Under the pieces are notes generated by a model. The model was not told where the DNA came from and did no database searches. It worked only from the letters and a program-made list of their open reading frames with translations. Position numbers and translations under genes: made by a program. Below, piece after piece: positions 19,898 to 46,010 of a DNA stretch of 49,810 nt (position 1 is its first letter; every line of letters begins with the position of its first letter). Source of the stretch: Candidatus Zixiibacteriota bacterium (GTDB lineage: Bacteria; Chloroflexota; Anaerolineae; Promineifilales; Promineifilaceae); contig DASRZI010000085.1 of NCBI GenBank assembly GCA_035686605.1, forward strand, positions 1 through 49,810, read 5' to 3'.

Positions 19898-21001
19898 TTA
19901 AATCTCAATCCCCAATAACTGGAGTCCGATCTCCTTTATTCGATCCTCAGTGCCTACGTACAACCAGAGGAGAAGTTGGTCAGTGCTGGTGGATCGGCCT
20001 GTCTCGCCTCCGATCGTCTGCGCGTTGCACTCCATCTCGCCAAAGCCACCCAAATTACCGTCGTCATTGTAAACGTGGATTGAGTGGCCACGCGTTCCCG
20101 GAGCATCTGCAGGTTGCTCGGCGTACGTTACGGATGGATTGTTGAAAAAATTTCGTACGACCAGGTAGGCTAGATCATCGACCAATTGATTGTAATAGCC
20201 CATACGACCAAATACGTGTGCGGCCGAGTAGCCAACTTTGTACTGCCGGTCACCGGTTATCCTTAGGCGAATATGGCCAGGCAGGAGTGTTTGCAGTTTT
20301 TCATCGATGGGCTCGTAGTAGTCCGAATACGAAACATGGGGCGAAGAAGGAATCAATAAAAGACCGCCTGGATTTAACTGAATCAGATTCCATGCCGCAG
20401 CCATAAGATCATCTCGCTTGCTTTCAGAGATGGACAGAATCTGCTCGTAACCGGCAAAAAGAACCTCTTCCGTGAGATTCTCGTAGTTGCCCAGGTATCG
20501 CAGGGGGTCTGAGGCCGGATGGATTAACCGTTCCAAGTGTAATTCTTTATTACCTGCCCCTAGATTAAATGCCCCCAATACCATATCTTGTTCTAAACGC
20601 CATTGCCCAGGCTGCGTCTTTTCAAGCCGGTAGCGGCCGGGATCTACCTGGTTCGGCAAGTTATAGGTATTCCAATAGTCTGTGCGATCGTGGACATTAT
20701 ATTGAATCTCAGGGGCAATCCATATCCGGTCACCACCCAGGTTCCAATCACCTGAGTCAAGGAAATCCTGAAAGGATTCCGGTTGTGCAAAGGCGTCGTT
20801 GGTCCAGAATAGGCTCTCACCACTAGGAACAATATCAAAGGGTAAATATGGTCCAAAGATGCGCCCTCCATACTGAGATATCACTATCGATACACCGTTT
20901 TGCAACTCTAGCTTAGCATAGGCAAATCCTTTTTCCTCCAGGCAAGCGGTGATCTGGTAACGTGTGATTTTGTTGTTCATACCGGACCCATTTCCTCTCA
21001 A
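19898..21001 (-). CDS. Hypothetical protein, possibly with a galactose-mutarotase-like fold
   Basis: Long ORF in an operon context. NLGGDRIWIAPE and GGRIFGPY are reminiscent of mutarotase-like DUFs, which is weak evidence. Start is either TTG at 21001 or ATG at 20980. Confidence 0.8.
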   Translation of the reverse strand: MRGNGSGMNNKITRYQITACLEEKGFAYAKLELQNGVSIVISQYGGRIFGPYLPFDIVPSGESLFWTNDAFAQPESFQDFLDSGDWNLGGDRIWIAPEIQYNVHDRTDYWNTYNLPNQVDPGRYRLEKTQPGQWRLEQDMVLGAFNLGAGNKELHLERLIHPASDPLRYLGNYENLTEEVLFAGYEQILSISESKRDDLMAAAWNLIQLNPGGLLLIPSSPHVSYSDYYEPIDEKLQTLLPGHIRLRITGDRQYKVGYSAAHVFGRMGYYNQLVDDLAYLVVRNFFNNPSVTYAEQPADAPGTRGHSIHVYNDDGNLGGFGEMECNAQTIGGETGRSTSTDQLLLWLYVGTEDRIKEIGLQLLGIEI

Positions 21002-21011
21002 TCAATGGCGC

Positions 21012-22463
21012 TTAAGCCAAGCCCTTTTTCTTGTAGAAATGCCGGGCTTCATTAAGAATTCTGTCTAGCTCTTGATCCTGTTCTTCGGGTAGATCATGCT
21101 GATAATTGGCCAGCATCTGATCGACCATTTCCTTGGCATAGTCCAAGGCATTCTTTTTCCCGGCTGCCTCCCATTCTGGGTAGGTTAACTGGTCTGAAGC
21201 AACCGGCACATATTGTTCCTTCTGCCACCATTCCCTGGTATGAGCCTCGCCGAGGAAGAAGCCCGGTATAGGTCCTATCTGCTGGATGAGATCGAGGGCT
21301 AGCGTATCATCGCTCACCTCAACGCCCTCGAGAAACCGGCCAATCATACCCGCTACGTCATTATCCAGGATTGACAGTGCAGGGTGATAGCTCAGCTCGC
21401 CAGTCAGTCCTCCGACATAGTTGATGATGCTTGCGCCTGATATGGCTGTGAGCACGGTCGCGATAGATTTTTCATATCCGAGCTGGTAGTCGATCGATTT
21501 CGAATTGCCTGGTCCGCTGCTGCCAAACATAGTGGGGATGTTGTACTTGCCTCGCCACATCTGATTGTACATGACATTGAATAACGAGATCCCGATGCGA
21601 CCAAATCCAGGAGCCCCGGTTCGCATGTTCTGGGGAAAGACGAAGGCATTGGACAAGATTGGCGTTCGAGGCCGGACGAGTTGGACCAGGACAATACCCG
21701 ACATCACCTCGGCGTTGCTACTGACCATCCCGGCGGCTAGAGTGGCCGGTCCTGTTCCACCCAATACGGCCCCACACCCTACTTCCACAGGGTATCCGGC
21801 CTCGGCCACGTCCCAGGCACAGTTGATTGCATCACCATACCAGGTTAGTGGTGGCGCTGACTCCATGGCAGCAAAGACATCGACACCTAAAGCCTGGGCC
21901 ATCTGGATACCCCAGATGTGACTATCCTCCGCTTGTCCAATCCGAACTGGCTTTCGAAGATATTTCATCTGGCTCCAGCAACTGGTGGGCAAAAGCATTG
22001 AAGGCGCAACCCCTTCTAGCTCGCAATAAGGGGTATATGAAGGTAATAAATGAACATTCTCCAGATCGGCCAGGATCTTGATCGCATCGTGGTTGTCCTG
22101 GATGGTTGGCGTTCTAGGTTCCCAAGTGTCGATATCGATACCCCGCATGCCTGGGAAAGCTGCCCAGTGCAGTGTTCTACCTCCTATGCTCAAATCATAC
22201 TTAGGCGTTCTTCCTTTAAGATGAAAAGTGCTTGGGCAGAGGCGCAGACACTCTTCCACCAGGCCCGGAGGGATCCGCACTCTTCTTGTTTCATGATCTA
22301 CATTGCATCCATTCTTCTCAAATAATTTAAGAGCCCTTTTGCTTTCGAACCGAACCCCGGTGTGCTCTAAAACATCGAGGCTACCACGATGGATCGCCTC
22401 CACTTGCTCTTCAGTCATTATCGTTAGTGGCTTAAATCCTTGGGTATAACCCTTTGCTGGCAT
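21012..22463 (-). CDS. MttB-superfamily (trimethylamine methyltransferase-like, non-pyrrolysine) methyltransferase, paralog 1
   Basis: N-terminal hallmark LTIMTEEQVEAIHRGSLDVLEHTGVRFESKRALKLFEKNGC. Full-length ORF with no in-frame TAG. AAGGAG SD. Confidence 0.9.
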   Translation of the reverse strand: MPAKGYTQGFKPLTIMTEEQVEAIHRGSLDVLEHTGVRFESKRALKLFEKNGCNVDHETRRVRIPPGLVEECLRLCPSTFHLKGRTPKYDLSIGGRTLHWAAFPGMRGIDIDTWEPRTPTIQDNHDAIKILADLENVHLLPSYTPYCELEGVAPSMLLPTSCWSQMKYLRKPVRIGQAEDSHIWGIQMAQALGVDVFAAMESAPPLTWYGDAINCAWDVAEAGYPVEVGCGAVLGGTGPATLAAGMVSSNAEVMSGIVLVQLVRPRTPILSNAFVFPQNMRTGAPGFGRIGISLFNVMYNQMWRGKYNIPTMFGSSGPGNSKSIDYQLGYEKSIATVLTAISGASIINYVGGLTGELSYHPALSILDNDVAGMIGRFLEGVEVSDDTLALDLIQQIGPIPGFFLGEAHTREWWQKEQYVPVASDQLTYPEWEAAGKKNALDYAKEMVDQMLANYQHDLPEEQDQELDRILNEARHFYKKKGLA

Positions 22464-22496
22464 TTTCTTGCTCCTTAATCGCAGCTACGTTTTGGA

Positions 22497-23141
22497 TCAA
22501 ACTGGCAAATTTAACATTTTCTTTGCCAACTCCACCGCTCCCGGTGCTGTTGATCCATAGCCGTCGGCGCCAATCATGTCAGCAAATTCCTGCGTAATAG
22601 CGCCACCACCGACCATAATCTTTACTCTGTCTCTAAGCCCGGCTTCCTTTAAGGCATCGATCACCTTGCCCATCTGAGGGGCGGTAGTGGTCAGGAGAGC
22701 TGACAATGCCAGAATGTCGGCCGTTTCTTCCCGTACTGCCTCGACGAAGCGGGAAGCCGGCGTATCAGCGCCCACATCCACAACGCGGAATCCTTGAGCT
22801 ACCAACAGGACACCGACCATCGACTTGCCGATGGTATGAATATCGCCCGCCACAGTTCCGAGGACTATGGTACCAAGGCTCTTTGATTGCTGGCCTCTCT
22901 TGCGAATCTCTTCCTCCAGGATCGGCATGGCTGCCTGGCTTGCGCCGGCCGCGCCCACTAGGTCAGGTAGCCAGAGTGTTCCCGTGGAATAACCGTTCCC
23001 TACATAAGTCATAGCCTCCGAAATTGCATCCAGACCTTCAAGGGGATCTAGACCCTCGTCCACAATCGTTTGCGCACTGGCCGCGGCCTTGTTCTGGTTG
23101 TACTCAATCACTGCTGATTTTAGATCATCAAACACACTCAT
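22497..23141 (-). CDS. Corrinoid (cobalamin-binding) protein, MtbC/MttC/MtgC-like
   Basis: B12-binding DxHxxG motif (GDIHTIGKSMV), SALLTTT, MVGGGAI. An N-terminal helical B12-binding_2-like cap. GGAGGA SD. Confidence 0.9.
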   Translation of the reverse strand: MSVFDDLKSAVIEYNQNKAAASAQTIVDEGLDPLEGLDAISEAMTYVGNGYSTGTLWLPDLVGAAGASQAAMPILEEEIRKRGQQSKSLGTIVLGTVAGDIHTIGKSMVGVLLVAQGFRVVDVGADTPASRFVEAVREETADILALSALLTTTAPQMGKVIDALKEAGLRDRVKIMVGGGAITQEFADMIGADGYGSTAPGAVELAKKMLNLPV

Positions 23142-23190
23142 TTTCCCTTATCCTCCTCTAAAATTCTTACTGTAAAGCCTTGAAACTTCA

Positions 23191-24645
23191 TTACATCAAA
23201 CCCTTCTTGTGATAGTAATGCTTGGCTTCCTCCAATATTCTGTCGAGCTCCACTTCTTTATCTTCGGGCAAATCGTGCTCATAGTTGGCGATTAGCTCGT
23301 TAACCCTTTCTTTGGCATTATCTATGGCGCTTTTTTTCCCCGCCGCCTGCCATTCTGTGTACGTCAGTTGGTCAAAAACCTGGGGTACAAACTGTTCCTT
23401 GTGCCAGTTTTCTCTGGTATGTGATTCGCCCAGGAAAAAGCCTGGGATGGGTCCGACTTGTTGGATCAGATCGAGGGCGAGCGTCTCTTCATTCACATGA
23501 AGCCCTTCAAGAAAACGCCCAATCATGCCCGCCATGTCGTTGTCTAACACACTTACCACCGGATGGTATGTCAATTCGCCGTGCAGACCGCCAATAGCAT
23601 TTATGATTGATCCGCCGGAGAGCGCCCCGATGGTACAGGCCATAGCCTTCTCGTAGCCGTACTGGGCGTCAGGCAACTTTGAAGCCATGGGACCACAGGC
23701 GCCAAGCAATGTTGGTAACCCATATTTGGCTCGCCACATCTGAGTATAACCCGCCTGGAACAGAGAAATACCAATTTGCCCAAAGCCAGGCGCACCGGTC
23801 CTCATATTCTGCGGAAAGACAAAACAGTTGGCGATTGTTCCTAACCCTGGGCGTAATAGCTGCACCAGCACAATACCCGACATCATCTCGGCGTTACTGG
23901 CTACTAGGCCGCCGGCAAAGGTGGCGGGACCTGTACCACCCAGCACAGCGCCACAGCCGACCTCGATAGGGAACCCGGCCTCGGCATGGGCCCAGGCGCA
24001 TTCTATGGCATCTCCGTACCACGTCAGCGGCGGTGCGGATTCGAAGGAACCAAACACATCAATATCCAGCACCTGTGCCATCTGAATACCCCACAACCAG
24101 CTCTCTTCAGCCTGTCCCACCCGGAACGGCTTGGTAAAGTATTTCATTCGGCTCCAGCAACTTGTCGGCAGCAGCATTGCTGGCGCCACACCCTCCAATT
24201 CACAATAAGGCACATAGGAAACAGACAGGTGCACATGCTCCAGGCTGTCCAGGACCTTCACTGCATTATGGTTTTCCTCGATTGTTGGTGTCCGTGGCTC
24301 CCAGGTGTCGATATCTACGGTCCTCATTCCGGGAAACACACAGAAGTAGGTTGGATTGTTGGCACTCAGATTGAGATCATTTTTTGGATTTCTGGCCCTA
24401 AGATGAAAGCTCGTGGGACATCTGCGCAGGCATTCCTCAACCAATCCGGGAGGGAATCTAACGCGCTTATTTTCAAAATCGACCTTGCAACCATTTTTTT
24501 CAAATAGTTTGAGAGCTTTTTCGCTCTCGAACCGAATGCCGGTGTGTTCCAGAACATCGAGACTACCCCGATGGATGGACTCCATTTGCTCTTCAGTCAG
24601 TATTTCGAGTGGTCTGAAGTTCCTCATGAATCCTCTAGCTGGCAT
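23191..24645 (-). CDS. MttB-superfamily methyltransferase, paralog 2
   Basis: Collinear with paralog 1 and roughly two-thirds identical by eye (LEILTEEQMESIHRGSLDVLEHTGIRFESEKALKLFEKNGC). ATG at 24645 follows GAAGGAG; the tracked ORF begins at a TTG at 24651. Confidence 0.9.
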   Translation of the reverse strand: MPARGFMRNFRPLEILTEEQMESIHRGSLDVLEHTGIRFESEKALKLFEKNGCKVDFENKRVRFPPGLVEECLRRCPTSFHLRARNPKNDLNLSANNPTYFCVFPGMRTVDIDTWEPRTPTIEENHNAVKVLDSLEHVHLSVSYVPYCELEGVAPAMLLPTSCWSRMKYFTKPFRVGQAEESWLWGIQMAQVLDIDVFGSFESAPPLTWYGDAIECAWAHAEAGFPIEVGCGAVLGGTGPATFAGGLVASNAEMMSGIVLVQLLRPGLGTIANCFVFPQNMRTGAPGFGQIGISLFQAGYTQMWRAKYGLPTLLGACGPMASKLPDAQYGYEKAMACTIGALSGGSIINAIGGLHGELTYHPVVSVLDNDMAGMIGRFLEGLHVNEETLALDLIQQVGPIPGFFLGESHTRENWHKEQFVPQVFDQLTYTEWQAAGKKSAIDNAKERVNELIANYEHDLPEDKEVELDRILEEAKHYYHKKGLM

Positions 24646-24797
24646 AATCAACGCTCCTTCTTCTTAAAATATTAATGTCTGTAAGTCGGGTATAGATAGA
24701 GCCTATTCATCAAGTTTTTCCAACAGGCGCCACTTATTAAAACACGGTTACTCCAACTTTTGACTCATTTTTTTATCGACCACTTCTACCGATCACA

Positions 24798-30717: not shown

Positions 30718-32229
30718 TTACATACGGTGATGAATACTCTTCAATGCCGGATAGACCTCACGATAGAGGTCAAAGCGTTCATCATAGAGAGCCTTGCGCT
30801 TCAGATCTGGATCAAACCGGCGACCAAATAGAAGCTTTTTTTCGGCCGCTTCGGCTGCACTGGAAAAATGCCCGGCAGCCGCACCCGCAAGGAGGGCAGC
30901 CCCACGACTTGCTGCCTCGGTTATAGCCGGCACAACCACAGGTACTCCGCAGATATCAGCCTTCAATTGCAGCCACAAATTGGAACGCGCTCCCCCGCCG
31001 ATCGCCCGTAATTCGTCGATTTCAATGCCTCCATCCTTCAATAGGTCCAGGTTGAGCCTAAGTTCAAAGGTCAAACCCTCCAGGATAGCCTTGGCCAACT
31101 CACTCTTTTCTGTACTGAAGGTCAGGCCAAGAATGGCCCCCTTAGAGCCCGTGTCGAAGGCAGGTGTGCCGCTTCCTGCAAAATCAGGCAAGAGCAAGAG
31201 GGAGGTTGGGTCCGGTGAGGCGTCTCGCAGCAGAAGATCATATGCATCGGAGTCGCCGGCCTGGGCTTCTTGCATCTCTTCCTGGCCGAACGTATCCCGG
31301 AACCAGCGTAATACCAGCCCTCCGCTGTGATTGAGTGCCATGGCCAGGTACAAGTCAGGAATGACGTGGGCATAAACTGAGATATCACCCTGATAAAGTG
31401 TCTCATTGAGCACAGGGGCATCAAGACCTACCTCAACGACTTCGGCCGTGCCGGTAGAGTCCATAGCTAATCCAGCTCGGACAAGCCCAACACCCAGCGC
31501 GCCACATGCCTGATCGTGGCCGCCCGTTACAACCAGGGGTGTGTTGGTGAGTCCCAAGCTCTTAGCCAAATCAGATTTCATCGAGTCTACAGCCGTGCCC
31601 GATGGCTTGACTGTCGCAAGTCGATTCGGCTCTAATTCAAGCGCCTCCAGAATCTCTGGAGACCAACGATCATCTAGTAGATCAAAGATCTGAGTGCGCG
31701 AGGCCAGGCAGCGGCTTATCACGGCCTGTCCGGCCATTTTATTGATTAGGAAATCCTCGAAGAGTAGGAACCGGTCGGCACAAGCCCACACCTCTTGTTC
31801 ATACTGCTTGAGCCAAAGAAGCTTAGGTAATGTGTTGACTGTGTGGATGGGCATGCCTGTTCGTTTGAAGAGGTGTCTTGCGCCGAAGCGCTGTCTAAGC
31901 CATGCATTCTGCTCGCTGGTCCGCGAATCCATTCCCAGTATGGCCGGGCGAATAGCCCGTCCTTTTTCATCCACCGGCATCACTGCCTCACCTTGGACTG
32001 ACAGCCCAACTGATGCCAACGTGCGAATACTCGCTTTGGAAATCGCCTCCCGAAGCGCCCCCTGGACTAATCTCCAGAGAAGCTCTGCATCTTGCTCCAC
32101 CCAGTTTGGTTGTGGAATATCCACCGCGTACTCGCGACCAGCCGTACTTATAAGGAAACCGCTCTCGTCAAATATCGCGGCTTTACAACCGGTCGTGCCA
32201 ACGTCCAAGCCAGCTAGATACATCGACAT
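30718..32229 (-). CDS. FGGY-family carbohydrate kinase (xylulokinase-like)
   Basis: N-terminal LAGLDVGTTGCKAAIFD, the C-terminal FGGY pattern (GGGARS.LW.Q..AD) and a length of about 500 aa. Confidence 0.9.
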   Translation of the reverse strand: MSMYLAGLDVGTTGCKAAIFDESGFLISTAGREYAVDIPQPNWVEQDAELLWRLVQGALREAISKASIRTLASVGLSVQGEAVMPVDEKGRAIRPAILGMDSRTSEQNAWLRQRFGARHLFKRTGMPIHTVNTLPKLLWLKQYEQEVWACADRFLLFEDFLINKMAGQAVISRCLASRTQIFDLLDDRWSPEILEALELEPNRLATVKPSGTAVDSMKSDLAKSLGLTNTPLVVTGGHDQACGALGVGLVRAGLAMDSTGTAEVVEVGLDAPVLNETLYQGDISVYAHVIPDLYLAMALNHSGGLVLRWFRDTFGQEEMQEAQAGDSDAYDLLLRDASPDPTSLLLLPDFAGSGTPAFDTGSKGAILGLTFSTEKSELAKAILEGLTFELRLNLDLLKDGGIEIDELRAIGGGARSNLWLQLKADICGVPVVVPAITEAASRGAALLAGAAAGHFSSAAEAAEKKLLFGRRFDPDLKRKALYDERFDLYREVYPALKSIHHRM

Positions 32230-32234
32230 AGCTC

Positions 32235-33887
32235 CTAGAGTTGTTTCCTTTTAGGAGTCTTGGGAAGTGGGGCTTTTTCGACCTGAGCTTGATGCACCAA
32301 TGCATCGATTGTTAGAGCCATGGCTGCTGTACTGACCGCCCCGAACATGGCCCCTTTCAACACGGTAGCGGCGTCATAAATTTGGGCTTGCGCCATGTCA
32401 ACGACTTGTTGTTTTTTAACATCGAACCCGTGTCCTGCGCCGGCGAGTCGGACTTCGGCCATTATCTCACTGGCGTCAAACCCGGCATTGTCGACAATAG
32501 TTCGAAATGGGGCTTCCATAGCTTCTATCAGGATCTGATAGGCAGCGTGCTGTTCAGAATCGGTGCTATTATCCCGCTTCCGCAGGAGTGCTGGCCTTGA
32601 GTCAAGGAATGCCACGCCGCCCCCCGCGAGCACGCCATCCATCATAGCTCCTCGCAGTGTCACGGCCGTTCGTTTTGCCAGCTCAACGCGTGACTCAATC
32701 TCTCTCTCGGTTATTCCCCCCACATGAAGAGTTGCGGAGCCTCCCAATAATTTGCCAATGCGTTTCTGAATTTTCGTCCGATTGGTATTCGTTTCAGCAC
32801 TGGTATAGACCTGGCGCAATGTAGCAACATGTCTACGCAAATCCCGAGGATTGCCTTTGCCGCCCGAAATCCCAAAGTTGTCATAGTTAGCCCATATGCG
32901 GCGAGCGCGACCAAAGTCCTCGATTTTAATCTTATCCAACGTGTCGCCGGCCGCAGAGATGAAAGGCCGACCACCGGTTAAGATGGCCAGATCTTCAAGG
33001 GCTGCCATTTGTTCTTCTCTGACAAGACCAGGTGTTTTTACCGCGATGGCCTGGAATTTCTCTGGCTTACGATTGGACAGCAAAAATCCGATGGCATCTC
33101 CTGATAGTTGTTTGGTCACAATCAGAAGCCCCTGGATCTCTGCTCTGAGGGCTAATTCGAGGGCTGGATATATTTGACGCGCGTCGTTGATCTCAATATC
33201 GCTGATCAGAATAGCGGCATCTTCAAATTCTACCCGAGGCTTACTGTGATCGGCATACATCTCCCGGACAAGGAGACCACGCTCCCAGTACATGCCTTCC
33301 ACATATTCACGTTCAACATTTCTATTCTGTCCGGGCCGGATCTCCAGGCGGCCGTATTCGCCAATGATCTCAAACACCTCACCCATGTAGCCGGCAAGCG
33401 TGGGATCAAAGCAAAGTGTTTCGGCAGCCTGGGCGAGCTGTTTTTTGCCCGCAATCCGCCACGTCATACTGTTTAACTGCTGGAGAATTAGTCTTGCACC
33501 TTCAAGGAGCTGGACCTGCAGTCGCATGGCATTGCCACCAGCAGTAAGGAAACGGACGCCTTCATTGAAGACTTTTTGAAAGATGACAGCCGCTGTCGCA
33601 GTACCATCTCCAATCTGTTCTTGTAGCCGCCAGAGCAGGTCGCGAACCAACATGGCTCCCATGTCAGCATCTTTATCCTGCAATTGAATAATATATCGAG
33701 CAATGGTCCCGCCATTGTCAATAAATTCAGGGGCTTCGCTATAGTAATCGGTATTGTCAATAGCCACGCCTCTTGGTTGTGGCCCCAGTGTAGGGCGAAC
33801 CGCATTAACCACCTGGTTCATGCCAGCTTGTATGCTTTGGCGGGTTCGGGGTTGGAAGACAACACGCTGGGTTTTGGATTTTGGCAT
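32235..33887 (-). CDS. Divergent Cpn60/GroEL-family chaperonin-like protein (no GroES partner, no GGM tail)
   Basis: Collinear with GroEL: TLGPQPRGV, GDGTATAAV (GroEL DGTTT), VEGMYWERG (VEGMQFDRG), KTPGLVREEQMAALEDLAILTGG, LGGSATLHVGG, LAGGGVAF. ATG at 33887 (MPKSK) lies 4 nt after the upstream stop. Confidence 0.88.
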   Translation of the reverse strand: MPKSKTQRVVFQPRTRQSIQAGMNQVVNAVRPTLGPQPRGVAIDNTDYYSEAPEFIDNGGTIARYIIQLQDKDADMGAMLVRDLLWRLQEQIGDGTATAAVIFQKVFNEGVRFLTAGGNAMRLQVQLLEGARLILQQLNSMTWRIAGKKQLAQAAETLCFDPTLAGYMGEVFEIIGEYGRLEIRPGQNRNVEREYVEGMYWERGLLVREMYADHSKPRVEFEDAAILISDIEINDARQIYPALELALRAEIQGLLIVTKQLSGDAIGFLLSNRKPEKFQAIAVKTPGLVREEQMAALEDLAILTGGRPFISAAGDTLDKIKIEDFGRARRIWANYDNFGISGGKGNPRDLRRHVATLRQVYTSAETNTNRTKIQKRIGKLLGGSATLHVGGITEREIESRVELAKRTAVTLRGAMMDGVLAGGGVAFLDSRPALLRKRDNSTDSEQHAAYQILIEAMEAPFRTIVDNAGFDASEIMAEVRLAGAGHGFDVKKQQVVDMAQAQIYDAATVLKGAMFGAVSTAAMALTIDALVHQAQVEKAPLPKTPKRKQL

Positions 33888-33891: not shown

Positions 33892-35013
33892 TTATCCCTT
33901 GACCGCCCCCGACATTGCTCCTTCAACGAATAGCCGCCTGAACACCAGATACACCAAGACCAGGGGAATAACCGAGGCTAAGACCGCCGAATAAATAACC
34001 TGGTAATTGGTTGAAAATTGGCCTGCAGTACTTTGAATAAACGGGAGTAGCGTCGTATTGCCGGGATCCAGATATACATATGCCTCCAGAAACTGGTTGT
34101 ATAGCAGGGGCAACATAATGACGATCAGGCTAACGATGGGTACCTTAAGGAGCGGAATGAGAATGTATTGCATGTACTGCCAGCTTGTGGCTCCATCGAT
34201 CATAGCTGAATCTTCGATCTCTTTTGGTATAGCGCCTATTGCCGCGGTAAAGATCATAACTGACAACGCGGTGCCCTTGATGTTAATCATTATTAAAGAA
34301 GAAAGTTGCATCGCAGTACGTACGGTACCATCCTCCTGATATGCTGGGAATAGATTGTAGAACCACTGGAACATCAGGTATTGAGGCAAAAGGATTAGCA
34401 TGATCGGAATGACCATTTGGAGCAAATAAATATTGTATACGGCCATCTGGTACTTGCGTTGAAGACCTTTTAGACCATAGCCTGTCATTATTGAAAGCAG
34501 TATCAACAAGGTTAGACTGATGATGGTAACAATTAGGGTCTTAACAAGAGCACCCCAGAAAGTGGTGCTTTGCAGTGTTCCTGTCAATATGGTGTTCCAA
34601 CCGTTGTTGGTGTAGAAGCCGTCAAAAAACTTGGTGATCTCTTCCTCAGGGATGTTGTGCTCCTCGGCAACCTCGCGTAGTGTTGTTCGGGCCATGAGAA
34701 ATTCGGTTGGGGGAATACCTAAAGCTTCTCTCAGATCTGCTAAATCAAGATCATAAAAGACAGCCAGGTTGCCAACCTCTGCATCGAGATTGACATCCTC
34801 TGTCTCGGGGATCCAGAGATGCAGGTCGGTAGATTCTTTGGTAGGCACAAAACTACGAATGAAAAGCGCATAGAATGGAAATAGCGTGACAAGGCTATAA
34901 ATAGCCATGATAGTGATGGCCAGGATTTTGACCATCCGCTTCCGCCGACTCAGAGAGAAGATCGGCGGCTTTTGAGGTCTGGCTGTTGCTGAAGTCGATG
35001 TCATATTCTTCAT
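33892..35013 (-). CDS. Carbohydrate ABC transporter permease (MalG-like) with an enlarged extracytoplasmic loop
   Basis: Multiple TM segments and the EAA-type motif EDSAMIDGATSWQYMQYILIPLL. Confidence 0.9.
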   Translation of the reverse strand: MKNMTSTSATARPQKPPIFSLSRRKRMVKILAITIMAIYSLVTLFPFYALFIRSFVPTKESTDLHLWIPETEDVNLDAEVGNLAVFYDLDLADLREALGIPPTEFLMARTTLREVAEEHNIPEEEITKFFDGFYTNNGWNTILTGTLQSTTFWGALVKTLIVTIISLTLLILLSIMTGYGLKGLQRKYQMAVYNIYLLQMVIPIMLILLPQYLMFQWFYNLFPAYQEDGTVRTAMQLSSLIMINIKGTALSVMIFTAAIGAIPKEIEDSAMIDGATSWQYMQYILIPLLKVPIVSLIVIMLPLLYNQFLEAYVYLDPGNTTLLPFIQSTAGQFSTNYQVIYSAVLASVIPLVLVYLVFRRLFVEGAMSGAVKG

Positions 35014-35023
35014 TCCCCCTTAC

Positions 35024-35974
35024 CTACACCTGTACGCGCCTTTGTAATCGCTGTAAGGCAATGCCTAAAATAACGAGGGGTAGAAAAGTCTCGACGGCAA
35101 GCGTCATTCCCATGGATAATCGCTCGACCTGGAAGCCATAGGTAAAGAACAGGATACTTAGCAATTTGGCTTCTGGATTTACGTAAAGAGCGCCCATAGC
35201 CACCAATTCATCAAAAACGGCAAAGGCGCCAATGAGGGCCATCGTCGTGGCTAGGATGAACGAAGGCCACATCTGAGGAAAGTAGACTCGCCATAACCTT
35301 TGCCAATAGGAGGCCCCGTCGACTATTGCCGCTTCGATCGTCTCTTTGGGGATGGCAAGCAGGCCTGCCAGAAAGATGGCCATGTTGAAGCCGGCATACC
35401 GCCAGCCAACCATGGCAGGCAGGATGAAAGCCGTCCCCCTTGGAGAATAGATATCGATTCCCTTCTCAATCAATCCTAACTCCATTAAGAGTAAGTTGAC
35501 AGTGCCGCTTTCACGAGAAAAGAGCATCACTGCCAGGTAACCTACGGCTAATCCCGAAACCATTAATGGTAAATAAACCACGGTAAAAAAGCCACCGTTG
35601 AAACCTACCTCGTACATCAACAGCGCCAAAGAAAGTCCGAATATGAATACAGTCGTATAATTTAATAAAACAAAAACAATCGTGCGGCGCAAAGCAGGAA
35701 AATAGTCGGCTTGAACGCTAGGATCATCAAAGATCGCTGTAAAATTCTTTAGACCAACCGGGTTGATTTGCGGATCGTTGAACTGGGACATGTCGGTGAA
35801 CAGGTAAGGGATAGCGACAAGGAACGGGATAATTGTTAGCAAGGTGAAAAGGATAAGTTGGGGCGAGATGAAGGCCATGTCACGCATCATCTCCCGGCGC
35901 TCCATTTTCGACATTTTTTTCTTTTTCTTACCTGATTTGCCGGTCGATGTTCCTGACGTGGCTTCAACTTGCAT
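35024..35974 (-). CDS. Carbohydrate ABC transporter permease (MalF-like)
   Basis: TM-rich, with the EAA motif ETIEAAIVDGASYWQRLWRVYFP. Confidence 0.9.
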   Translation of the reverse strand: MQVEATSGTSTGKSGKKKKKMSKMERREMMRDMAFISPQLILFTLLTIIPFLVAIPYLFTDMSQFNDPQINPVGLKNFTAIFDDPSVQADYFPALRRTIVFVLLNYTTVFIFGLSLALLMYEVGFNGGFFTVVYLPLMVSGLAVGYLAVMLFSRESGTVNLLLMELGLIEKGIDIYSPRGTAFILPAMVGWRYAGFNMAIFLAGLLAIPKETIEAAIVDGASYWQRLWRVYFPQMWPSFILATTMALIGAFAVFDELVAMGALYVNPEAKLLSILFFTYGFQVERLSMGMTLAVETFLPLVILGIALQRLQRRVQV

Positions 35975-35998
35975 GGTCCCTCCAACTTAGAGAATTAA

Positions 35999-36026
35999 GG
36001 GTGGCCCACGCGCAGGTGAGCCACCC
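35999..36026 (-). other. Intercistronic stem-loop between the binding-protein and permease genes
   Basis: gggtggcccac-gcgcag-gtgagccaccc forms a ~10-bp stem with one mismatch, 27 nt downstream of the binding-protein stop. Such hairpins commonly stabilise the binding-protein part of the mRNA. Confidence 0.45.
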
Positions 36027-36052
36027 AAACTCCAATGTTGTATGCTTAGCTA

Positions 36053-37531
36053 TTAAAGTGGCAAACCTTCGTAGCTTGCATCCCAGTTAGCCTGGGCCAT
36101 ATCCAGGGCTTCCTGGATGGTGATTTTATCTTGAAGCACATCGGCGAATACGGCATTATTACCATTAGCAGCCCAATCCCAGACGCCTTTAGCGCCCTTC
36201 TTGAGATATGGACCAGCCTTCACAACGCCAGTGATGCGCTCTTCCCAAACCGTATCTTCCCAAAGGCCACCGGGTTCTTCGATTTCCTTTAGGACATACT
36301 TGAATTGCGGACCTTTGAGATCGAGCGGTTTGTCTAGCTTATAAAGAACCTTGCGGCCTTCTGCCTGGGCGCGCATTTCCACGACCTCGGGGCTGTAGAA
36401 CCAGTTCCAGGCAGTCATGGTCTGTGGCCAATGCGCTGTATCCATATTACCCGCCCTAATAAAGAAGTCCATGTCAACGTTGGGGGAGGCTGCACCTTGA
36501 GTCCAGGTACTGTTACCTTCAGCAGGCGGTGTAAGCGGGATGCCTCGTTGTTCGAATGTGGATCCGGCAGCCAAAGCCTTATCCCACACCCATGGACCAT
36601 GGAGCATCATCACCGACTTGCCAGCGATGTAAGATGCTTCCATGTCGCCTTCCCACTGCCGGGTCCAGAAGCTCTCGGGAATCCACCCTTTGTCGTTGGC
36701 TTCTTTGTAGAACTCATAGGCATAGCGGTAAGGTGAGTCTTCTGCATTGAACTTGGCCAAACCCATAAAAGCGTCTACCTGCCGGTCACGATTACCATCA
36801 GCGAATGCCAGCGGAATTTCGTCCATGAGATTCATGCCAAAGACCCAATTGTGCCAGGCCTGGTTCCAGAAGTAATCTACATCTGGCTCACCGGCAGCCC
36901 ACTTGGTTCCCTCATCTATCCAGGTTTTCATGTCTTCCCAGGTCTTGACGTCGTTAACAGGATCCAATCCCGCCTTCTGCATCAAGTCGTTGTTGTACTG
37001 CCAGGTAAAGACATAACCCTGAAAGATAGACAGGGTGCGGGGACCTGGTAGGCCATACATATCAGGCCAGGCATTCTTAACATCGACTGTGAAGCGATCC
37101 CACCACGGGAATTCAAACGAACTAAGGTCTTCAAACAATTGATAGTTATCTGTACTGGCTAGGATTTGTAACTCTTGGGTATTCTCAAAGGAAGGCAACC
37201 AACCCCCAGCCACCTTGGCTTCGTGGGCTGCTGCCGTATCCTCGTTGATCGAGAACAAATTGACCTTGATGTCCGGATTTTGGGCTTCGAACACATTCCA
37301 AATTTCGCGATATGGGGCTTCGTACTCGGAAAGCGGCGCCATGATGTCCAGTGTCACTGCTTCCGCACTTGCAGGTACTGCGGTAGGTGCTGGCACATCG
37401 GTTGCGGTGGTTCCACTGCTTGCCGGCTCGGTAGGATCTCCTGATGCCCCGCAGGCCACCAGAGTCATACCCGCTGCCGTAGCCGCACTCACACGCAAGA
37501 AATCGCGCCGAGTCATTTTGTTATTTGTCAT
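36053..37531 (-). CDS. ABC transporter extracellular solute-binding lipoprotein with a Tat signal
   Basis: Twin-arginine motif MTRRDFLRVSAATAAGMTLVAC followed by the lipobox LVAC. Family-1-like sugar-binding protein length. AAGGAGGAG SD. Confidence 0.9.
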   Translation of the reverse strand: MTNNKMTRRDFLRVSAATAAGMTLVACGASGDPTEPASSGTTATDVPAPTAVPASAEAVTLDIMAPLSEYEAPYREIWNVFEAQNPDIKVNLFSINEDTAAAHEAKVAGGWLPSFENTQELQILASTDNYQLFEDLSSFEFPWWDRFTVDVKNAWPDMYGLPGPRTLSIFQGYVFTWQYNNDLMQKAGLDPVNDVKTWEDMKTWIDEGTKWAAGEPDVDYFWNQAWHNWVFGMNLMDEIPLAFADGNRDRQVDAFMGLAKFNAEDSPYRYAYEFYKEANDKGWIPESFWTRQWEGDMEASYIAGKSVMMLHGPWVWDKALAAGSTFEQRGIPLTPPAEGNSTWTQGAASPNVDMDFFIRAGNMDTAHWPQTMTAWNWFYSPEVVEMRAQAEGRKVLYKLDKPLDLKGPQFKYVLKEIEEPGGLWEDTVWEERITGVVKAGPYLKKGAKGVWDWAANGNNAVFADVLQDKITIQEALDMAQANWDASYEGLPL

Positions 37532-41653: not shown

Positions 41654-42613
41654 ATGGATATTCCAAAAGAGAAGCTTGAATTTATGTATGATCGCATGGT
41701 GCGTATCCGGTTGTTTGAGAATCGAGTTAAAGATCTCTTTGCGGCTGGGGAAATGCCAGGTTTTGTTCATCTTTATTTAGGACAAGAAGCTGTTGCCGCC
41801 GGCGCCTGTGCCTCACTCAACGATGATGATTACATCACCTCAACTCACCGTGGACACGGTCATATTTTGGCGAAAGGTGGTGAATTTAAGTACATGATGG
41901 CCGAGTTATATGGCAAGATCACAGGCTATAACAAGGGTAAGGGTGGATCTATGCATATCGCCTGGCCTGAACTGGGTATTCTTGGAGCAAACGGCATATT
42001 GGCTGCTGGTATTCCTATTGCAGCCGGCGCAGCGTTATCGGCCAAATATCGAAGATCTGGTCAGGTAACAGCTTGTTTCTTTGGGGATGGCGCTATAAAT
42101 GAAGGGGGAGCTCACGAGACAATGAACATCGCCGCCGCTTTTAGCCTGCCAATTGTCTTCATATGCGAGAATAACCTGTATGCGGTAGGCACCTACCAAC
42201 CTGATGTTCGAAATATCGAAGACATTGCCGATCGGGCACCTGCTTATGGCCTGCCTGGGGCTGTTGTAGACGGCAATGATGTGTACGCCGTATACCTGGC
42301 AGTAAACGCCGCCGTTGACCGGGCTCGCTGTGGCGATGGGCCAACATTGATTGAATGTAAAACCTACCGCTGGCATCCCCATTTTGAGGGTGAAGCGGAT
42401 ACATATCGCCCACTAGCAGAGGTAAATGAATGGCGGAAACGAGAGCCAATCGCACCATATCGCAAAGCTTTAATAGCTCAAGGTGCATTCAGTGAAGAAG
42501 AGCTTGCCATTATTGATGATTCCATAGGGCGTGAGCTTGACGAGGCTGTTGAATTTGCCCGTAGCAGTCCATTCCCAGAACAGGAAAGTGCTCTTTCAGA
42601 CTTATGGGCCTAG
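41654..42613 (+). CDS. TPP-dependent E1 alpha subunit (acetoin/pyruvate dehydrogenase type)
   Basis: TPP motif FFGDGAINEGGAHETMNIAAAFSLPIVFICENNLYA. Also YRWHPHFEGE. Confidence 0.92.
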   Translation: MDIPKEKLEFMYDRMVRIRLFENRVKDLFAAGEMPGFVHLYLGQEAVAAGACASLNDDDYITSTHRGHGHILAKGGEFKYMMAELYGKITGYNKGKGGSMHIAWPELGILGANGILAAGIPIAAGAALSAKYRRSGQVTACFFGDGAINEGGAHETMNIAAAFSLPIVFICENNLYAVGTYQPDVRNIEDIADRAPAYGLPGAVVDGNDVYAVYLAVNAAVDRARCGDGPTLIECKTYRWHPHFEGEADTYRPLAEVNEWRKREPIAPYRKALIAQGAFSEEELAIIDDSIGRELDEAVEFARSSPFPEQESALSDLWA

Positions 42614-42632
42614 CCGGAAACAGGAGACAATA

Positions 42633-43625
42633 ATGACCAGAGAGATTTTCTACAATCGTGCGTTAAATGAAGCCATGGCCGAAGAGATGCGCCGTGATCC
42701 AAATGTTGTTCTTTGGGGGATTGACATTGGACCCTACGGCGGTGCAAATGGTGTAACTCGGGGACTACAGGAAGAATTTGGTGTGGAGCGGGTGATCGAC
42801 ATGCCGGTCTCTGAACTCGCCTTTGTGGGCATGGGTGTTGGGGCCGCGGCTACCGGTCTTCGACCTGTGATTGAACTCCAATTTTCAGACTGGATAACCC
42901 TGGCATCGGAGATGATTATTAACCAGGCAGCCAAGATGCGTTATATGTTTGGCGGTATTTTGGAAATGCCATTAGTAATTCGAGCACCTGTTGGTGGCTA
43001 CTTGTCCGCGGGAGCGCAGCACTCGAACAGCTTCGAGTCACTTTTTTCATTTGTGCCTGGCATAAAAGTCATCATGCCTGCTACGCCGTATGATGCAAAA
43101 GGACTACTGAAAAGTGCCATCAGGGATAACAACACAGTGATCTTCTTTGAACACAAAAAACTGTATGGAATGAAGGCCCACGTCCCAGATGAAGAATACC
43201 TCATCCCAATTGGCGAAGCCGAGGTGAAGCGTAAAGGCAATGATGTTACTATTGTTACCTATTCCTATATGGTCCATTTCTGTTTAGCGGCCGCCGAAAA
43301 ACTCGCCGCCGAAGGAATCGATATTGAAGTTATTGATCTTCGAACAGTTGATCCACTGGATAGAGACACTATTACCGAGTCAGTAAAGAAGAGTAGCCGG
43401 CTGGTTATCGTGCAAGAAACATGGTCAGATTGCAGCATCAGCTCAGAAATAGCCGCCCTGGCTGTTAGTTCTGAGTTATTCTTTTACCTGGATGCTCCTG
43501 TAGAACGGGTGACAGCGAAAGATGTTCCTATCCCCTTTAGCCCGCCCTTGGAGGAATTTGTATTACCGAGCGAGCAAAGCATCATTGACGCAGTTAATCG
43601 CACGCTTGACCGTGAACTTGCTTAG
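42633..43625 (+). CDS. E1 beta subunit
   Basis: MTREIFYNRALNEAMAEEM..., FSDWITLASEMIINQAAK, IFFEHKKLY. AGGAG lies 6 nt upstream of the ATG at 42633. The tracked start at 42531 overlaps the E1 alpha gene. Confidence 0.92.
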   Translation: MTREIFYNRALNEAMAEEMRRDPNVVLWGIDIGPYGGANGVTRGLQEEFGVERVIDMPVSELAFVGMGVGAAATGLRPVIELQFSDWITLASEMIINQAAKMRYMFGGILEMPLVIRAPVGGYLSAGAQHSNSFESLFSFVPGIKVIMPATPYDAKGLLKSAIRDNNTVIFFEHKKLYGMKAHVPDEEYLIPIGEAEVKRKGNDVTIVTYSYMVHFCLAAAEKLAAEGIDIEVIDLRTVDPLDRDTITESVKKSSRLVIVQETWSDCSISSEIAALAVSSELFFYLDAPVERVTAKDVPIPFSPPLEEFVLPSEQSIIDAVNRTLDRELA

Positions 43626-43633
43626 CGAGATAG

Positions 43634-44669
43634 CTTTGTGAACAAAAAGAGGGTTTAGAGGCCGTTGTCGGGCTCATACCCAACCCTGCTTCTGGCAAGG
43701 ATATTCGGCGCGTCGTGACCCATGCTCTCGTAATGGGTAACCGGGTAAAGGTCAAGCTGGTATTCTGTTTGTTAATCGGAATGCAGGCTGCAGGAGTTGA
43801 AATGGTGCAGATCATGCCAGATCGGTTTGGAATCGGTCAGAAGGCAATTGACGGGCTGCTGCGCAACAATCGCGAGATAGTGACCGAGGCAACAATTATT
43901 GATATGCCAGATTCCGGGACAGGGCGAGATACAGTCCTGGCTGCGAAGTTGCTAAGCGACAACAGTGCCAACTGCATCGTAACTCTCGATGGCGATGGAA
44001 CTGTACGGTTAACCGGCAACAACTGTGGCGAAATACCTGTCTTGCCGATATCTACGGGTACAAATAATGTAATGCCCCGGTTTGCCGATAGTACCGTCGC
44101 CGGCCTGTGTGTGGGCTATTTCGTTCAACAGGAAGAGAAAGATCGCCGCAGGTTGTTGTTATCGGGCGAAGAGACTTGACAATGAAGTCGATGGACAAAT
44201 GATCGATAGCGCGCTGGTTGATATGGCTGCAACTCAAGGCAGTGTTGTTGGTTCGAAGGCTGTCTGGGAACCAGATAACATTTGTCAATTATTTGTGACC
44301 CAGGCGTCACCAACCAATATTGGTCTCTCTGCCGTTGCAGGCATGCTCTGCTCCATCACGGTTCATGATTCATTCGGAGCTGCCCTCGAGCTATACCCAA
44401 AAGAGCCATATCAATTGGTGAAAGCAGCAATAGGGCCAGAGCTTGTATCAAACATCCCATTTGAAGATATCACATATCTAGATCCAGGCGTACGATGTCC
44501 CATCGCTGAGATCCGGCCCCTGGTTTTGAATTTAGAAGGCGAGCGCGAAACTGTACTTCATACCGAAGATAACGCCGCTGTGTATTTGAATGAATATGGT
44601 CCCTTGATTGTTAACGTCGAGCAGGTGATGGAACAGGCAGTTAGTAACGGATTTTTCATAAGGAAATAA
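43634..44669 (+). pseudogene. acoX-like (NAD kinase/diacylglycerol kinase-fold) gene with at least one internal frameshift and no in-frame start for its conserved N-terminus
   Basis: The GLIPNPASGKDIRR motif is encoded at 43670-43711 in frame with the 43715 ORF. No ATG/GTG/TTG lies between the stop at 43631 and 43715. TLDGDGTV...ISTGTNNV is the kinase-fold motif. The frame switches between 44082 and 44179 and continues as RAKRLDNEVDGQMIDSALVD... Confidence 0.6.
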
Positions 44670-44672
44670 TCT

Positions 44673-46010
44673 ATGCCAACAAATGTTGTGATGCCCAAGC
44701 TGGGGCTCAATATGATCGAGGGGTTGGTCGTCGAATGGCTCAAGCAGGTAGGTGATTTTGTAAAACAGGGTGACCTGCTCTTTGTTGTCGAGACAGATAA
44801 GATCACAACTGAATCCGAGGCACAGGTGGAGGGGGTTCTGGCGAAAATACTTGTATCAGCGGGAGAGGTAGTACCTGTTTCCACACCGGTGGCAATAATA
44901 TTGGCAAAAGATGAAGCTCTGGCTGGTGATGAAGCGCAAGTGCCATCTGATGTGACTCAGTCTCCGGCATCCCAGAAAAAGAAACATGCTATCAGACCGA
45001 CTCAAGCTAGCCCAACGGGCAAGGTTCTTGCTTCACCGGCCGCCAAACGACTTGCGAAGGAGTACGGACTCGAGCTTTCCACAATCCCAGGGAGTGGTCG
45101 GTTTGATAGCATCAAGCAAATGGATGTTGAGGGATTCTTGGAAGCTCACAAGCATGAACATTCTACAAAACCCCTGGCCTCTCCGCTGGCCAAGCGGGTT
45201 GCCAAGGAGTTTGGCGTTGACTTGATGGCAATTGTGGGAACTGGGAAAAATGGTCAGATAACCCGAGATGATGTCGAACGTGCCGCGACAGAACAAGAGC
45301 AACCAGCAACGCCCTTTAGGGTAACCCAGAGGATTCCCATCTCAGGGGTCAGAGCCACGATAGCCGAACGTATGTTATTGAGCATGCAGCAGTCGGCTCA
45401 GATTACCTTGCACACTGAAGTAGATGCAACATACCTGGTAAGGCTGCGCCATGCTTTCCAGGAAGTGGCTTTTTCGGCCGGTATCGATGTACCCAGCTAC
45501 AATGCCTTGCTGATTGAAATAGTTGCCCAAGCGTTAAGTGACCACCCACATATTAACGCCCGGCAAGAGGGTGATACCATTCTGGAATTGGAGGAGGTCA
45601 ATGTTGGCCTGGCAGTAGACACTATGCGTGGTCTACTGGTAGTGGTTATCAAAAATGCCGACCAAAAAAGTGCCTTGGCCATTGAATCAGAACTGACCAC
45701 TCTTGCCGAGCGTGCCCGGTTGGGAACTGCGACCTTGGACGATTTGACGGGCAGCACATTCACCTTAACCAATCTGGGGATGTTTGGTGTTGACGGCTTC
45801 ACTCCCATCATCAATCCGCCCGAAGTGGGTATCTTGGGCGTCGGTCGAATTGTTGAGAAACCAGTTATGGTTGGCGGTCAGGTCCAAGGACGACCAAGGA
45901 TGAGCCTTAGCCTGACATTTGATCATAGAGTGATTGATGGCGCCCCGGCAGCCAAATTCTTGCAGCATATCACCCAACTGATAGAGTCGAATGGCACGAG
46001 TTACTCCTAA
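44673..46010 (+). CDS. Dihydrolipoamide acyltransferase (E2) with one lipoyl domain and two subunit-binding-like segments
   Basis: VETDKITTESEA lipoyl motif. ASPAAKRLAKEYGLEL and ASPLAKRVAKEFGVDLMAIVGTGKNGQITRDDVE. Catalytic motif FDHRVIDGAPAAKF. Confidence 0.92.
   Translation: MPTNVVMPKLGLNMIEGLVVEWLKQVGDFVKQGDLLFVVETDKITTESEAQVEGVLAKILVSAGEVVPVSTPVAIILAKDEALAGDEAQVPSDVTQSPASQKKKHAIRPTQASPTGKVLASPAAKRLAKEYGLELSTIPGSGRFDSIKQMDVEGFLEAHKHEHSTKPLASPLAKRVAKEFGVDLMAIVGTGKNGQITRDDVERAATEQEQPATPFRVTQRIPISGVRATIAERMLLSMQQSAQITLHTEVDATYLVRLRHAFQEVAFSAGIDVPSYNALLIEIVAQALSDHPHINARQEGDTILELEEVNVGLAVDTMRGLLVVVIKNADQKSALAIESELTTLAERARLGTATLDDLTGSTFTLTNLGMFGVDGFTPIINPPEVGILGVGRIVEKPVMVGGQVQGRPRMSLSLTFDHRVIDGAPAAKFLQHITQLIESNGTSYS

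Follow-up and report, generated by a model that had tools for sequence, protein, structure and literature searches.

A gene within a catabolic operon of a Chloroflexota bacterium encodes a 550-aa GroEL-like protein that belongs to a large clade with altered catalytic residues and is linked, across this clade, to a gene for a small seven-bladed beta-propeller protein. The gene lies in a 49,810-nucleotide stretch of genomic DNA (GenBank assembly GCA_035686605.1, contig DASRZI010000085.1, positions 1 to 49,810; deposited as Candidatus Zixiibacteriota bacterium and assigned by GTDB to the Anaerolineae, family Promineifilaceae), hereafter the window. The homology to GroEL and the signature residue changes are conserved in the family, the two genes are reciprocally syntenic and co-diverge, and their products, one of which has a propeller fold, carry complementary charge. 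The reading that we favour, tentatively, is that the GroEL-like protein is a dedicated chaperonin for the propeller, slow or non-cycling and found for the most part in sugar-uptake loci; ring assembly, nucleotide binding, slow hydrolysis, physical interaction of the two proteins and the client relationship are all predicted from sequence and genomic context.

GroEL homology and the signature of the clade

The gene and the codons that matter most for the argument are as follows (residue correspondences from HMMER and MAFFT alignments).

32235-33887, minus strand: divergent GroEL-like gene, 550 aa (ATG at 33887, stop codon 32237-32235)
33714-33719, minus strand: D57, equivalent to GroEL K51, and N58, equivalent to GroEL D52 (N58 codon 33716-33714)
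33594-33608, minus strand: phosphate-binding loop D94-G-T-A-T98, equivalent to GroEL D87-GTTT91
32670-32672, minus strand: codon of R406, equivalent to the catalytic D398 of GroEL

The same ATG was chosen by gene callers on four other contigs that encode an identical protein; a longer, TTG-initiated open reading frame (ORF) reaching 33926 was rejected, as it overlaps the upstream permease gene and is used neither by homologs nor by gene callers on other contigs. The product matches Pfam Cpn60_TCP1 (PF00118) over residues 27-533 (E = 1.5e-32, 113.4 bits against a cutoff of 34.3) and is aligned end to end with GroELs from the PDB by HMMER (residues 8-534, E ~1e-74), in agreement with the collinearity originally read from the sequence by eye. 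Identity to Escherichia coli GroEL is ~30%, and the top Foldseek matches are all GroEL/Hsp60. Judged from these matches, the gene product is a relative of group I chaperonins by fold and descent. An AF2 monomer model built with 25 close homologs reached a mean predicted local distance difference test (pLDDT) of 66.5, with hinge regions below 50, and was left unused for active-site inspection because of this moderate confidence.

The protein is nevertheless far from canonical GroEL. Its score against the NCBIfam GroEL equivalog TIGR02348 (333.8 bits) falls below the cutoff of 582.1, as do its scores against four of the five GroEL 'subfamily' models, the fifth, NF009487, being passed marginally (361.8 versus 352). 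The models for the chlamydial variants GroEL2 and GroEL3 score 107.7 and 74.1 bits against cutoffs of 600, and thermosome/CCT models match the C-terminal equatorial part alone, with 22-54 bits against cutoffs of 400-710. At GroEL positions 51, 52, 87, 89, 90, 91, 398, 479 and 495 the window protein reads D-N-D-T-A-T-R-D-D; it has a pI of 8.66 and ends in ...PKTPKRKQL, without Gly-Gly-Met (GGM) repeats. The original prediction, based on a by-eye alignment, had Asp398 replaced by Arg, Asp52 by Asn and DGTTT by DGTAT, a missing GGM tail and no groES neighbour. The formal HMMER and MAFFT alignments give the same three replacements: neither D52 nor D398, whose conservation had been set beforehand as the test of that prediction, is kept in the window protein, and a further change, K51 to Asp, had gone unnoted.

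These features define an extensive family. In a protein search, over 120 clusters matched at 55-81% identity, the organism-named ones all coming from metagenome-assembled genomes (MAGs) of Anaerolineae or Chloroflexota, and a scan of one genome per GTDB species yielded 118 relatives, nearly all in Chloroflexota MAGs with titles such as Anaerolineae, Anaerolineales, Caldilineaceae, Ardenticatenia, Thermoflexales and similar. We define the clade signature as D51, A90, a basic residue at 398 and D479, with D87, T89, T91 and D495 kept and the GGM tail missing, all of which the window protein displays. A profile search of 1.84 billion representatives recovered more than 110 clusters (50% identity) with this signature, 23-43% identical to E. 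coli GroEL (most 24-38%), whereas the canonical GroELs from the same searches are 51-67% identical to it, mostly have Gly-Met-rich tails and retain K/N51-D52-D87-T89-T90-T91-D398-N479-D495. Since more than 400 related intact sequences share the signature, the unusual residues of the window protein are not a chance observation.

Residue counts over 82 relatives drawn from genome loci separate the fixed from the relaxed positions. D87 and the replacements of K51 by Asp, T90 by Ala and N479 by Asp are each present in all 82 members. No Asp occurs at position 398 (R 76, H 3, Q 2, K 1), which is Arg or Lys in 316 of the 360 sequences carrying both A90 and D51. Position 52, by contrast, is variable (D 36, N 33, S 8, others); D52N, to which the original prediction gave equal prominence, is thus not family-defining, and R398 is. 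The nucleotide pocket is essentially invariant (T30-L-G-P33, G86-D87-G88, T89, T91, G414-416 and D495), and contacts within and between rings are retained, with R452 in 77/82 and Asp or Glu at the position of E461 in 73/82. The GGM tail is absent from the family members shown, most of which end in VHHRxPExxxEP. The subclade of the window protein, in which the propeller gene is not adjacent, instead ends in a basic KRK(Q/R)L. Taken together, the substitution pattern suggests a clade under purifying selection that would still bind nucleotide, with the hydrolysis step redesigned or disabled.

With E. coli GroES as a tblastn query, no match was found in the window or in 170 related loci (171 sources, 1.94 Mb, flanks of up to 10 kb), and the same 1.94 Mb of flanks contained no canonical groEL. 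Canonical GroELs labelled Chloroflexi or Chloroflexota are present in the same databases (P0472, 52% identity to E. coli GroEL), and a 2025 study reports that, where a bacterium has several chaperonins, a paralog with a Gly-Met tail is always among them (PMC11978752). From the equivalog score, the changes at D52, D398 and in GDGTTT, the missing GGM tail and the lack of a groES neighbour, we infer that the gene is not the housekeeping groEL. The family alignment, the model scores and the absence of groES nearby are thus consistent with the orphan, divergent GroEL paralog with altered hydrolysis residues that had been proposed.

Among the matches of the representative search, two proteins of ~1080 aa (P0296, P0323) contain two complete GroEL units in one chain, with catalytic residues of the canonical type, and three others (P0348, P0354, P0362) a partial and a full unit in tandem; these could be single-chain GroEL dimers or gene-call artefacts.

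The beta-propeller gene as a conserved neighbour

The conserved partner lies outside the interval to which the original prediction was confined, and was missed there.

14596-15540, minus strand: partner gene, 314 aa, encoding a single seven-bladed Asp-box/BNR beta-propeller; it adjoins the GroEL-like gene on its 3' side in most relatives
15097-15120, minus strand: WNFGLLDL loop (residues 141-148), the most conserved stretch of the propeller family, located within the region of lowest internal model confidence

We surveyed 83 related loci (L001-L083, of which L001 and L005 are one contig fetched twice) with up to 10 kb of flank per side, using ORF calling and BLAST against the operon proteins of the window. 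A homolog of the propeller gene is located directly downstream of the GroEL-like gene in 64 of the 74 evaluable genome loci (~87%). Most gaps between the two fall in the range -4 to +20 nt, a spacing to be expected under translational coupling, and the pair thus appears to be usually coupled in this way. The reverse test, in which JGI metagenome contigs were searched with the propeller alignment, gave the same picture: a GroEL-like gene ends just upstream in 61 of the 68 loci with sufficient upstream sequence; of the seven exceptions, three come from the subclade of the window itself. In the window, the propeller gene is found ~17 kb further down the same strand, as the last gene of the operon, and both genes likewise reside within one long operon, ~17-18 kb apart, elsewhere in this subclade (L002, L084, L085). 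The metagenomic locus L091 repeats the window order of DUF6786, 890-aa protein, fucose-isomerase-like and propeller genes; the window shares the separated arrangement with L084, L085 and L091. In the lineage of the window, the propeller gene is one that has moved to the far end of the operon.

None of the other neighbours is comparably conserved. A permease gene is immediately upstream in 30/70 genome loci and 5/33 metagenome loci, sugar-operon enzymes are encoded in ~25/83 loci, and the FGGY kinase gene is adjacent in L001-L005 only, so the linkage to kinase and transporter genes that the original prediction anticipated does not extend across the family. The two clients suggested there fare no better: the '870-aa hydrolase' (in fact 890 aa, 17236-19908) recurs in L091 only, and MttB/corrinoid genes occur in 0/83 loci. 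On synteny, we rejected the 890-aa hydrolase, the corrinoid/MttB proteins and the FGGY kinase as conserved partners. What survives of that proposal is its general class, a dedicated assembly factor or repurposed scaffold, which fits the evidence; its named clients and neighbour linkage are not supported. The pair itself recurs in other contexts, including sulfatase, histidine kinase and creatininase-family genes (assigned by eye), LacI-type regulator and solute-binding protein genes, and glycoside hydrolase genes.

Mirror-tree correlations of pairwise distances, calculated over the 19 loci having all four genes, were as follows.

GroEL-like protein versus propeller: r = 0.93
GroEL-like protein versus either permease: r = 0.46-0.52
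Permease 1 versus permease 2: r = 0.98

The statistic carries no formal p-value because the pairs are not independent. From the synteny and these correlations it follows that the two genes travel and diverge together; they are therefore inherited as a unit while their surroundings are exchanged.

The propeller protein is built from seven ~44-aa repeats with the pattern SPNFxxDxTxFAG...GxxRSxDGGxTW, has a pI of 4.40 and is cytoplasmic, with no signal peptide or lipobox in its sequence. Pfam assigns it to BNR/Asp-box, Sortilin-Vps10 and PSII_BNR, and all NCBIfam models score far under their cutoffs (Ycf48, 39 bits versus 326). Its AF2 model, built with 30 homologs, is a single seven-bladed propeller (pLDDT 89.5, predicted template-modelling (TM) score 0.88), for which the nearest Foldseek matches are GH74 half-domains, Ycf48 and WD40 propellers (TM 0.68-0.74, 12-20% identity). 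After the WNFGLLDL loop, the second most conserved stretch of the family is NGGRAWRE (residues 178-185). The protein probably binds or processes imported carbohydrate. The median pI is 4.4 for the propellers versus 8.3 for the GroEL-like proteins, compared with 4.85 for E. coli GroEL, and the net charge of the cavity-lining positions changes from -7 per subunit in E. coli GroEL to ~-1 in the family. Such charge complementarity fits a physical association of the two proteins, as far as sequence can suggest one.

The link to propellers extends to remote members of the clade, although the sample is small (seven members, at 31-44% identity to the window protein). A beta-propeller gene is directly downstream in four of the seven.

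P0456: downstream 307-aa BNR protein, after solute-binding protein, permease, permease and GH32/43 genes
P0445, with Asp still at position 398: downstream 676-aa BNR/Sortilin protein (L090:6001-9724)
P0461: downstream 239-aa BNR protein
P0423: downstream 529-aa FG-GAP propeller

P0445, P0461 and P0423 are among the remote members at 31-36% identity, and five of the seven directly follow ABC sugar permease genes. The association with propellers, and a looser one with sugar importers, therefore predates this particular pair. The 676-aa protein beside P0445 is probably a double propeller, and this pairing may represent an earlier stage of the same partnership. In a remote subgroup (P0411 and P0423), a gene for a 253-275-aa protein with a signal peptide is located between the permease and GroEL-like genes (L087:4984-5745, L176:3950-4777). 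These proteins are 35% identical to each other and have no Pfam match; considered as possible propellers, they were rejected as such, being a conserved secreted protein of another type.

Full-text literature searches, covering GroEL paralogs of Anaerolineae or Chloroflexota as well as links between chaperonins and beta-propeller or BNR proteins, returned no description of this family or of the pairing.

The operon and its surroundings

The GroEL-like and propeller genes belong to a single run of same-strand genes, the principal features of which are listed in order of transcription.

14596-41093, minus strand: 21 consecutive genes on one strand, separated by no more than 198 nt
First part: SorC regulator, SIS, FGGY kinase, ABC importer, GroEL-like, FGGY kinase and zinc-dependent alcohol dehydrogenase (Zn-ADH)
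Middle: xylose-isomerase-like TIM barrel, class II aldolase, DRL oxidoreductase, Zn-ADH, glyoxalase and MttB/corrinoid/MttB
Last part: DUF6786, 890-aa metallohydrolase-domain protein, fucose-isomerase-like and BNR propeller
33892-37531, minus strand: CUT1-type ABC sugar importer, whose genes rank second in frequency among the neighbours of the GroEL-like gene
36053-37531, 35024-35974 and 33892-35013, minus strand: the importer's solute-binding protein with a TAT signal and its two permeases
1636-6351, plus strand: 1571-aa ORF at the start of the window

The spacing originally given for the GroEL-like gene is correct, its minus-strand orientation having been left unstated: the upstream permease gene (33892-35013) ends 4 nt before the ATG, and the FGGY kinase ORF (30718-32229) starts 5 nt past the stop codon, or 11 nt past it with the start selected by the gene caller two codons later. 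No minus-strand intergenic terminator was found between the GroEL-like and propeller genes, and promoter and terminator scans of the window gave sites no commoner than in shuffled sequence. No CIRCE element was detected in the window with up to 3 mismatches allowed, and heat-shock control of the GroEL-like gene was rejected on this ground. Neither the GroEL-like protein nor the propeller has a PADLOC match to anti-phage defence.

Several neighbouring genes merit mention in their own right. The importer genes lack an ATPase gene, in the window as in the relatives examined; this is common among CUT1 systems that draw on a shared MsiK-type ATPase. At 21012-24651 on the minus strand, a corrinoid (B12-binding) gene lies between two full-length MttB-superfamily methyltransferase genes (483 and 486 aa) that are free of internal stops, and in such a carbohydrate operon the set may serve the demethylation of a methylated sugar or a quaternary amine. 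A different pair, of URO-D/MtaA-like and B12-binding genes, lies upstream in place of the MttB set in L001/L005 only, which are close relatives of the window. The 890-aa protein (17236-19908, minus strand) has no Pfam match, a CehA/McbA-type metallohydrolase domain at residues 490-812 alone being detected; no assignment was obtained for its N-terminal 490 aa. Two separate sets of 2-oxoacid dehydrogenase E1/E2 genes (10486-14414 and 41654-46010, both on the plus strand) flank the sugar operon on the opposite strand; in L084 and L085, an E1/E2 set is found inside the operon, directly before the propeller gene.

Proposed function, alternatives and known systems

In the mechanism that we tentatively favour, the GroEL-like protein would still form GroEL-type rings and bind nucleotide, turning it over slowly or not at all, and would serve the propeller alone, as a holdase, foldase or assembly factor. 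Its sequence retains the features on which GroEL relies for ring formation and nucleotide binding, but not those required for rapid turnover. The 34-kDa propeller chain would be captured or encapsulated until the propeller ring closes, with or without the participation of the cell's GroES and housekeeping GroEL, and the pair would be deployed mostly in sugar-import and catabolic loci. Seven-bladed propellers close their ring from non-contiguous strands and are classic obligate clients of the eukaryotic CCT. One client, co-expressed stoichiometrically, would be well served by a holdase or foldase that works slowly and through a single turnover. The D398A mutant of GroEL binds ATP normally and has 3% of wild-type ATPase activity, and its substrate is still encapsulated and folded (PMC3326522).

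A number of observations weigh against this reading. Ten of the 74 genome loci have no adjacent propeller gene, although five of these are L001-L005, from the window's own subclade, and three remote members (P0411, P0399, P0467) have none within 5-6 kb. The representative search yielded no fusion of a GroEL-like protein to a propeller, the matches of 780-1080 aa being tandem GroELs or a mis-called N-terminal extension. The helix H/I groove, which stays hydrophobic, has an entropy of 1.98 versus 1.56 for the rest of the apical domain; a conserved apical H/I groove as a fixed docking site was rejected, as it is more variable than the apical average. The invariant Arg398 and Asp51 look like positive design of a different active site rather than simple loss, and the GroEL-like protein may therefore perform chemistry or signalling beyond that of a slow chaperonin. 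The propeller's own motifs, WNFGLLDL and NGGRAWRE, are typical of an enzyme or binding partner and neutral as to its being a client. Finally, the model of the GroEL-like protein is of moderate confidence only (pLDDT 66.5), and physical interaction between the two proteins is predicted from genomic context.

Some of these points lead to the strongest competitor, a stable hetero-complex with a non-folding function, in which the GroEL-like ring would serve as a scaffold or nucleotide-gated regulator and the propeller as a carbohydrate-binding or catalytic subunit connected with the imported sugar. This corresponds to the 'repurposed scaffold' of the original prediction. We consider it unlikely, if worth keeping in view. 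The invariant D51/R398 pair suggests a redesigned site rather than decay, the overlapping or close start and stop codons suggest roughly equimolar synthesis, the charges are complementary, the propeller has conserved loops of its own, and the pair recurs beside CUT1 sugar importers, glycoside hydrolases and sulfatases. There is also a precedent in BBS6, BBS10 and BBS12, chaperonin-like proteins with divergent hydrolysis motifs that are thought not to fold proteins themselves (PMC5534436). Against it stand the lack of fusion proteins, the fact that no bacterial enzyme or regulator is known to use the GroEL fold in this way, and the conservation of nucleotide-binding and ring-interface residues as in a working chaperonin.

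Alternatively, the gene might encode a general second GroEL, co-induced with the sugar operon and raising folding capacity for its enzymes (TIM-barrel epimerase, class II aldolase, kinases, the 890-aa hydrolase and the corrinoid proteins), in line with the clients originally suggested. Its position within a catabolic operon of 21 genes, the first of which encodes a SorC-type regulator, would suit such a role. TIM barrels and class II aldolases, moreover, are classic GroEL clients, and operon-specific GroESL copies are known, for example from rhizobial nif regions (PMC5904260). However, the enzymes of the operon accompany the gene in only ~25/83 loci, with the hydrolase present in a single locus and the MttB set absent throughout, compared with ~87% for the propeller; the pair is found in unrelated contexts (sulfatase, histidine kinase, creatininase-like, LacI-type; by eye), and co-divergence is with the propeller, not with the permeases. 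Loss of D398 and of the GGM tail also argues against a broad client range (PMC11978752), and we regard this explanation as improbable.

There is an outside chance that the propeller is instead a purpose-built partner of a seven-membered ring, being either a lid or plug in the place of GroES or the subunit that senses a ligand for a nucleotide-gated machine, one with a redesigned Asp51/Arg398 active site and at work in sugar-uptake loci; if true, bacteria would have a chaperonin architecture of a new type. The narrower proposal, which we find harder still to credit, makes the propeller a cofactor of the chaperonin and not its client, namely a pseudo-sevenfold lid or plug that takes the place of GroES on the heptameric ring, or an adaptor docking through WNFGLLDL. 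It draws on the absence of groES within 10 kb in any of the 171 sources, the presence of exactly seven blades of ~44 aa, the complementary charge of the two proteins, and the nature of the most conserved propeller motif, an exposed low-confidence loop in which a Gly is followed by hydrophobics (FGLL). This loop recalls the GGIVL mobile loop of GroES, a resemblance to be taken as a lead only. A lid, however, would be needed in one copy per seven subunits, whereas the way the genes are arranged points to 1:1 synthesis; conservation of the apical groove is unremarkable; and the propellers of remote members vary in size and type (676-aa BNR, FG-GAP), so that 'client class' fits better than 'lid'.

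That this is simply the organism's housekeeping groEL, here by chance, deserves almost no credence: the marginal pass of one NCBIfam 'subfamily' model (361.8 versus 352) and the label 'chaperonin GroEL' in the source databases are set against a score far under the equivalog cutoff (333.8 versus 582.1), the absence of D398, GGM tail, groES neighbour and CIRCE element, the mid-operon position behind a SorC-type regulator gene, the existence of canonical Chloroflexi- or Chloroflexota-named GroELs in the same databases (P0472) and the Gly-Met-tailed copy that multi-chaperonin bacteria always retain (PMC11978752).

The dedicated chaperonin that we favour can be placed among known systems, beginning with E. 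coli GroEL, with which the clade shares the collinear equatorial, intermediate and apical architecture, the nucleotide-pocket residues (T30-P33, D87, T89, T91, G414-416, D495) and those of the ring and inter-ring contacts. It differs in its natural Arg398, Asp51 and Ala90, the relaxed position 52, the missing GGM tail and groES neighbour, a pI of 8.3 versus 4.85, a far less negative cavity and its location in catabolic loci beside a propeller gene. GroEL paralogs, both stand-alone and operon-specific, are a well-known phenomenon (PMC5904260, PMC5406781). Among the former, mycobacterial Cpn60.1/GroEL1, chlamydial GroEL2 and GroEL3 and cyanobacterial GroEL2 are non-essential and resemble the window gene in being second chaperonin genes that lack a groES and encode an atypical C-terminus, and in their presumed specialised role (PMC5904260, PMC11978752). 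From the chlamydial proteins the window protein is nonetheless distinct, falling far under the cutoffs of the variant models (107.7 and 74.1 versus 600). We know of no stand-alone paralog of this kind with a conserved adjacent partner gene or the D51/A90/R398 signature. Rhizobial groESL3, in the nif/fix region, is likewise regulated jointly with a particular set of metabolic genes (PMC5904260), but it retains groES, the catalytic residues and broad similarity to GroEL, whereas the clade described here lacks a neighbouring groES, has altered hydrolysis residues and is linked to one protein rather than to a pathway.

On the side of the partner, Ycf48/HCF136 and GH74 have the same seven-bladed Asp-box fold (TM 0.68-0.74 for GH74 half-domains and Ycf48), with identities of 14-20%, a Ycf48 model score of 39 bits versus 326 and, in GH74, two propellers instead of one; the partner protein is cytoplasmic, without signal peptide or lipobox, and has its own motifs, WNFGLLDL and NGGRAWRE. 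The current annotations, 'chaperonin GroEL' and 'photosystem II stability/assembly factor-like', are misleading, for example where groEL/cpn60 is used as a single-copy marker. What is new, on present sequence comparisons, is the D51/A90/R398 signature across a very large clade, together with its basic charge and the reciprocal pairing, marked by co-divergence, with a single small propeller. Although specialised GroEL paralogs have been described, their clients are, to our knowledge, almost never known; here, comparative genomics nominates one small, tractable candidate client or partner for a clade of more than 110 clusters (50% identity). This opens the questions of whether a GroEL ring can function without the catalytic Asp398, the Gly-Met tail and GroES, what role the invariant Arg398 plays and how beta-propellers are closed in bacteria.

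Functional parallels are found in eukaryotes. CCT folds seven-bladed WD40 propellers. The analogy with CCT/TRiC and WD40 proteins, and with BBS6, BBS10 and BBS12 and their partner BBS7, is a functional one. In it, divergent chaperonin-like proteins, some with altered ATP-hydrolysis motifs, stabilise a protein that contains a beta-propeller while assembly proceeds. BBS6, BBS10 and BBS12 stabilise BBS7, a component of the BBSome, whose members taken together include beta-propeller and other interaction domains (PMC5534436, PMC3370246). Those systems are eukaryotic and of group II, the BBS proteins acting together with CCT, whereas the window protein is bacterial and derived from group I, is known here from genes alone, and implies no common descent with them. 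If the dedicated-chaperonin reading is true, the pair would constitute a bacterial group I counterpart of the CCT-WD40 and BBS-chaperonin-BBS7 relationships.

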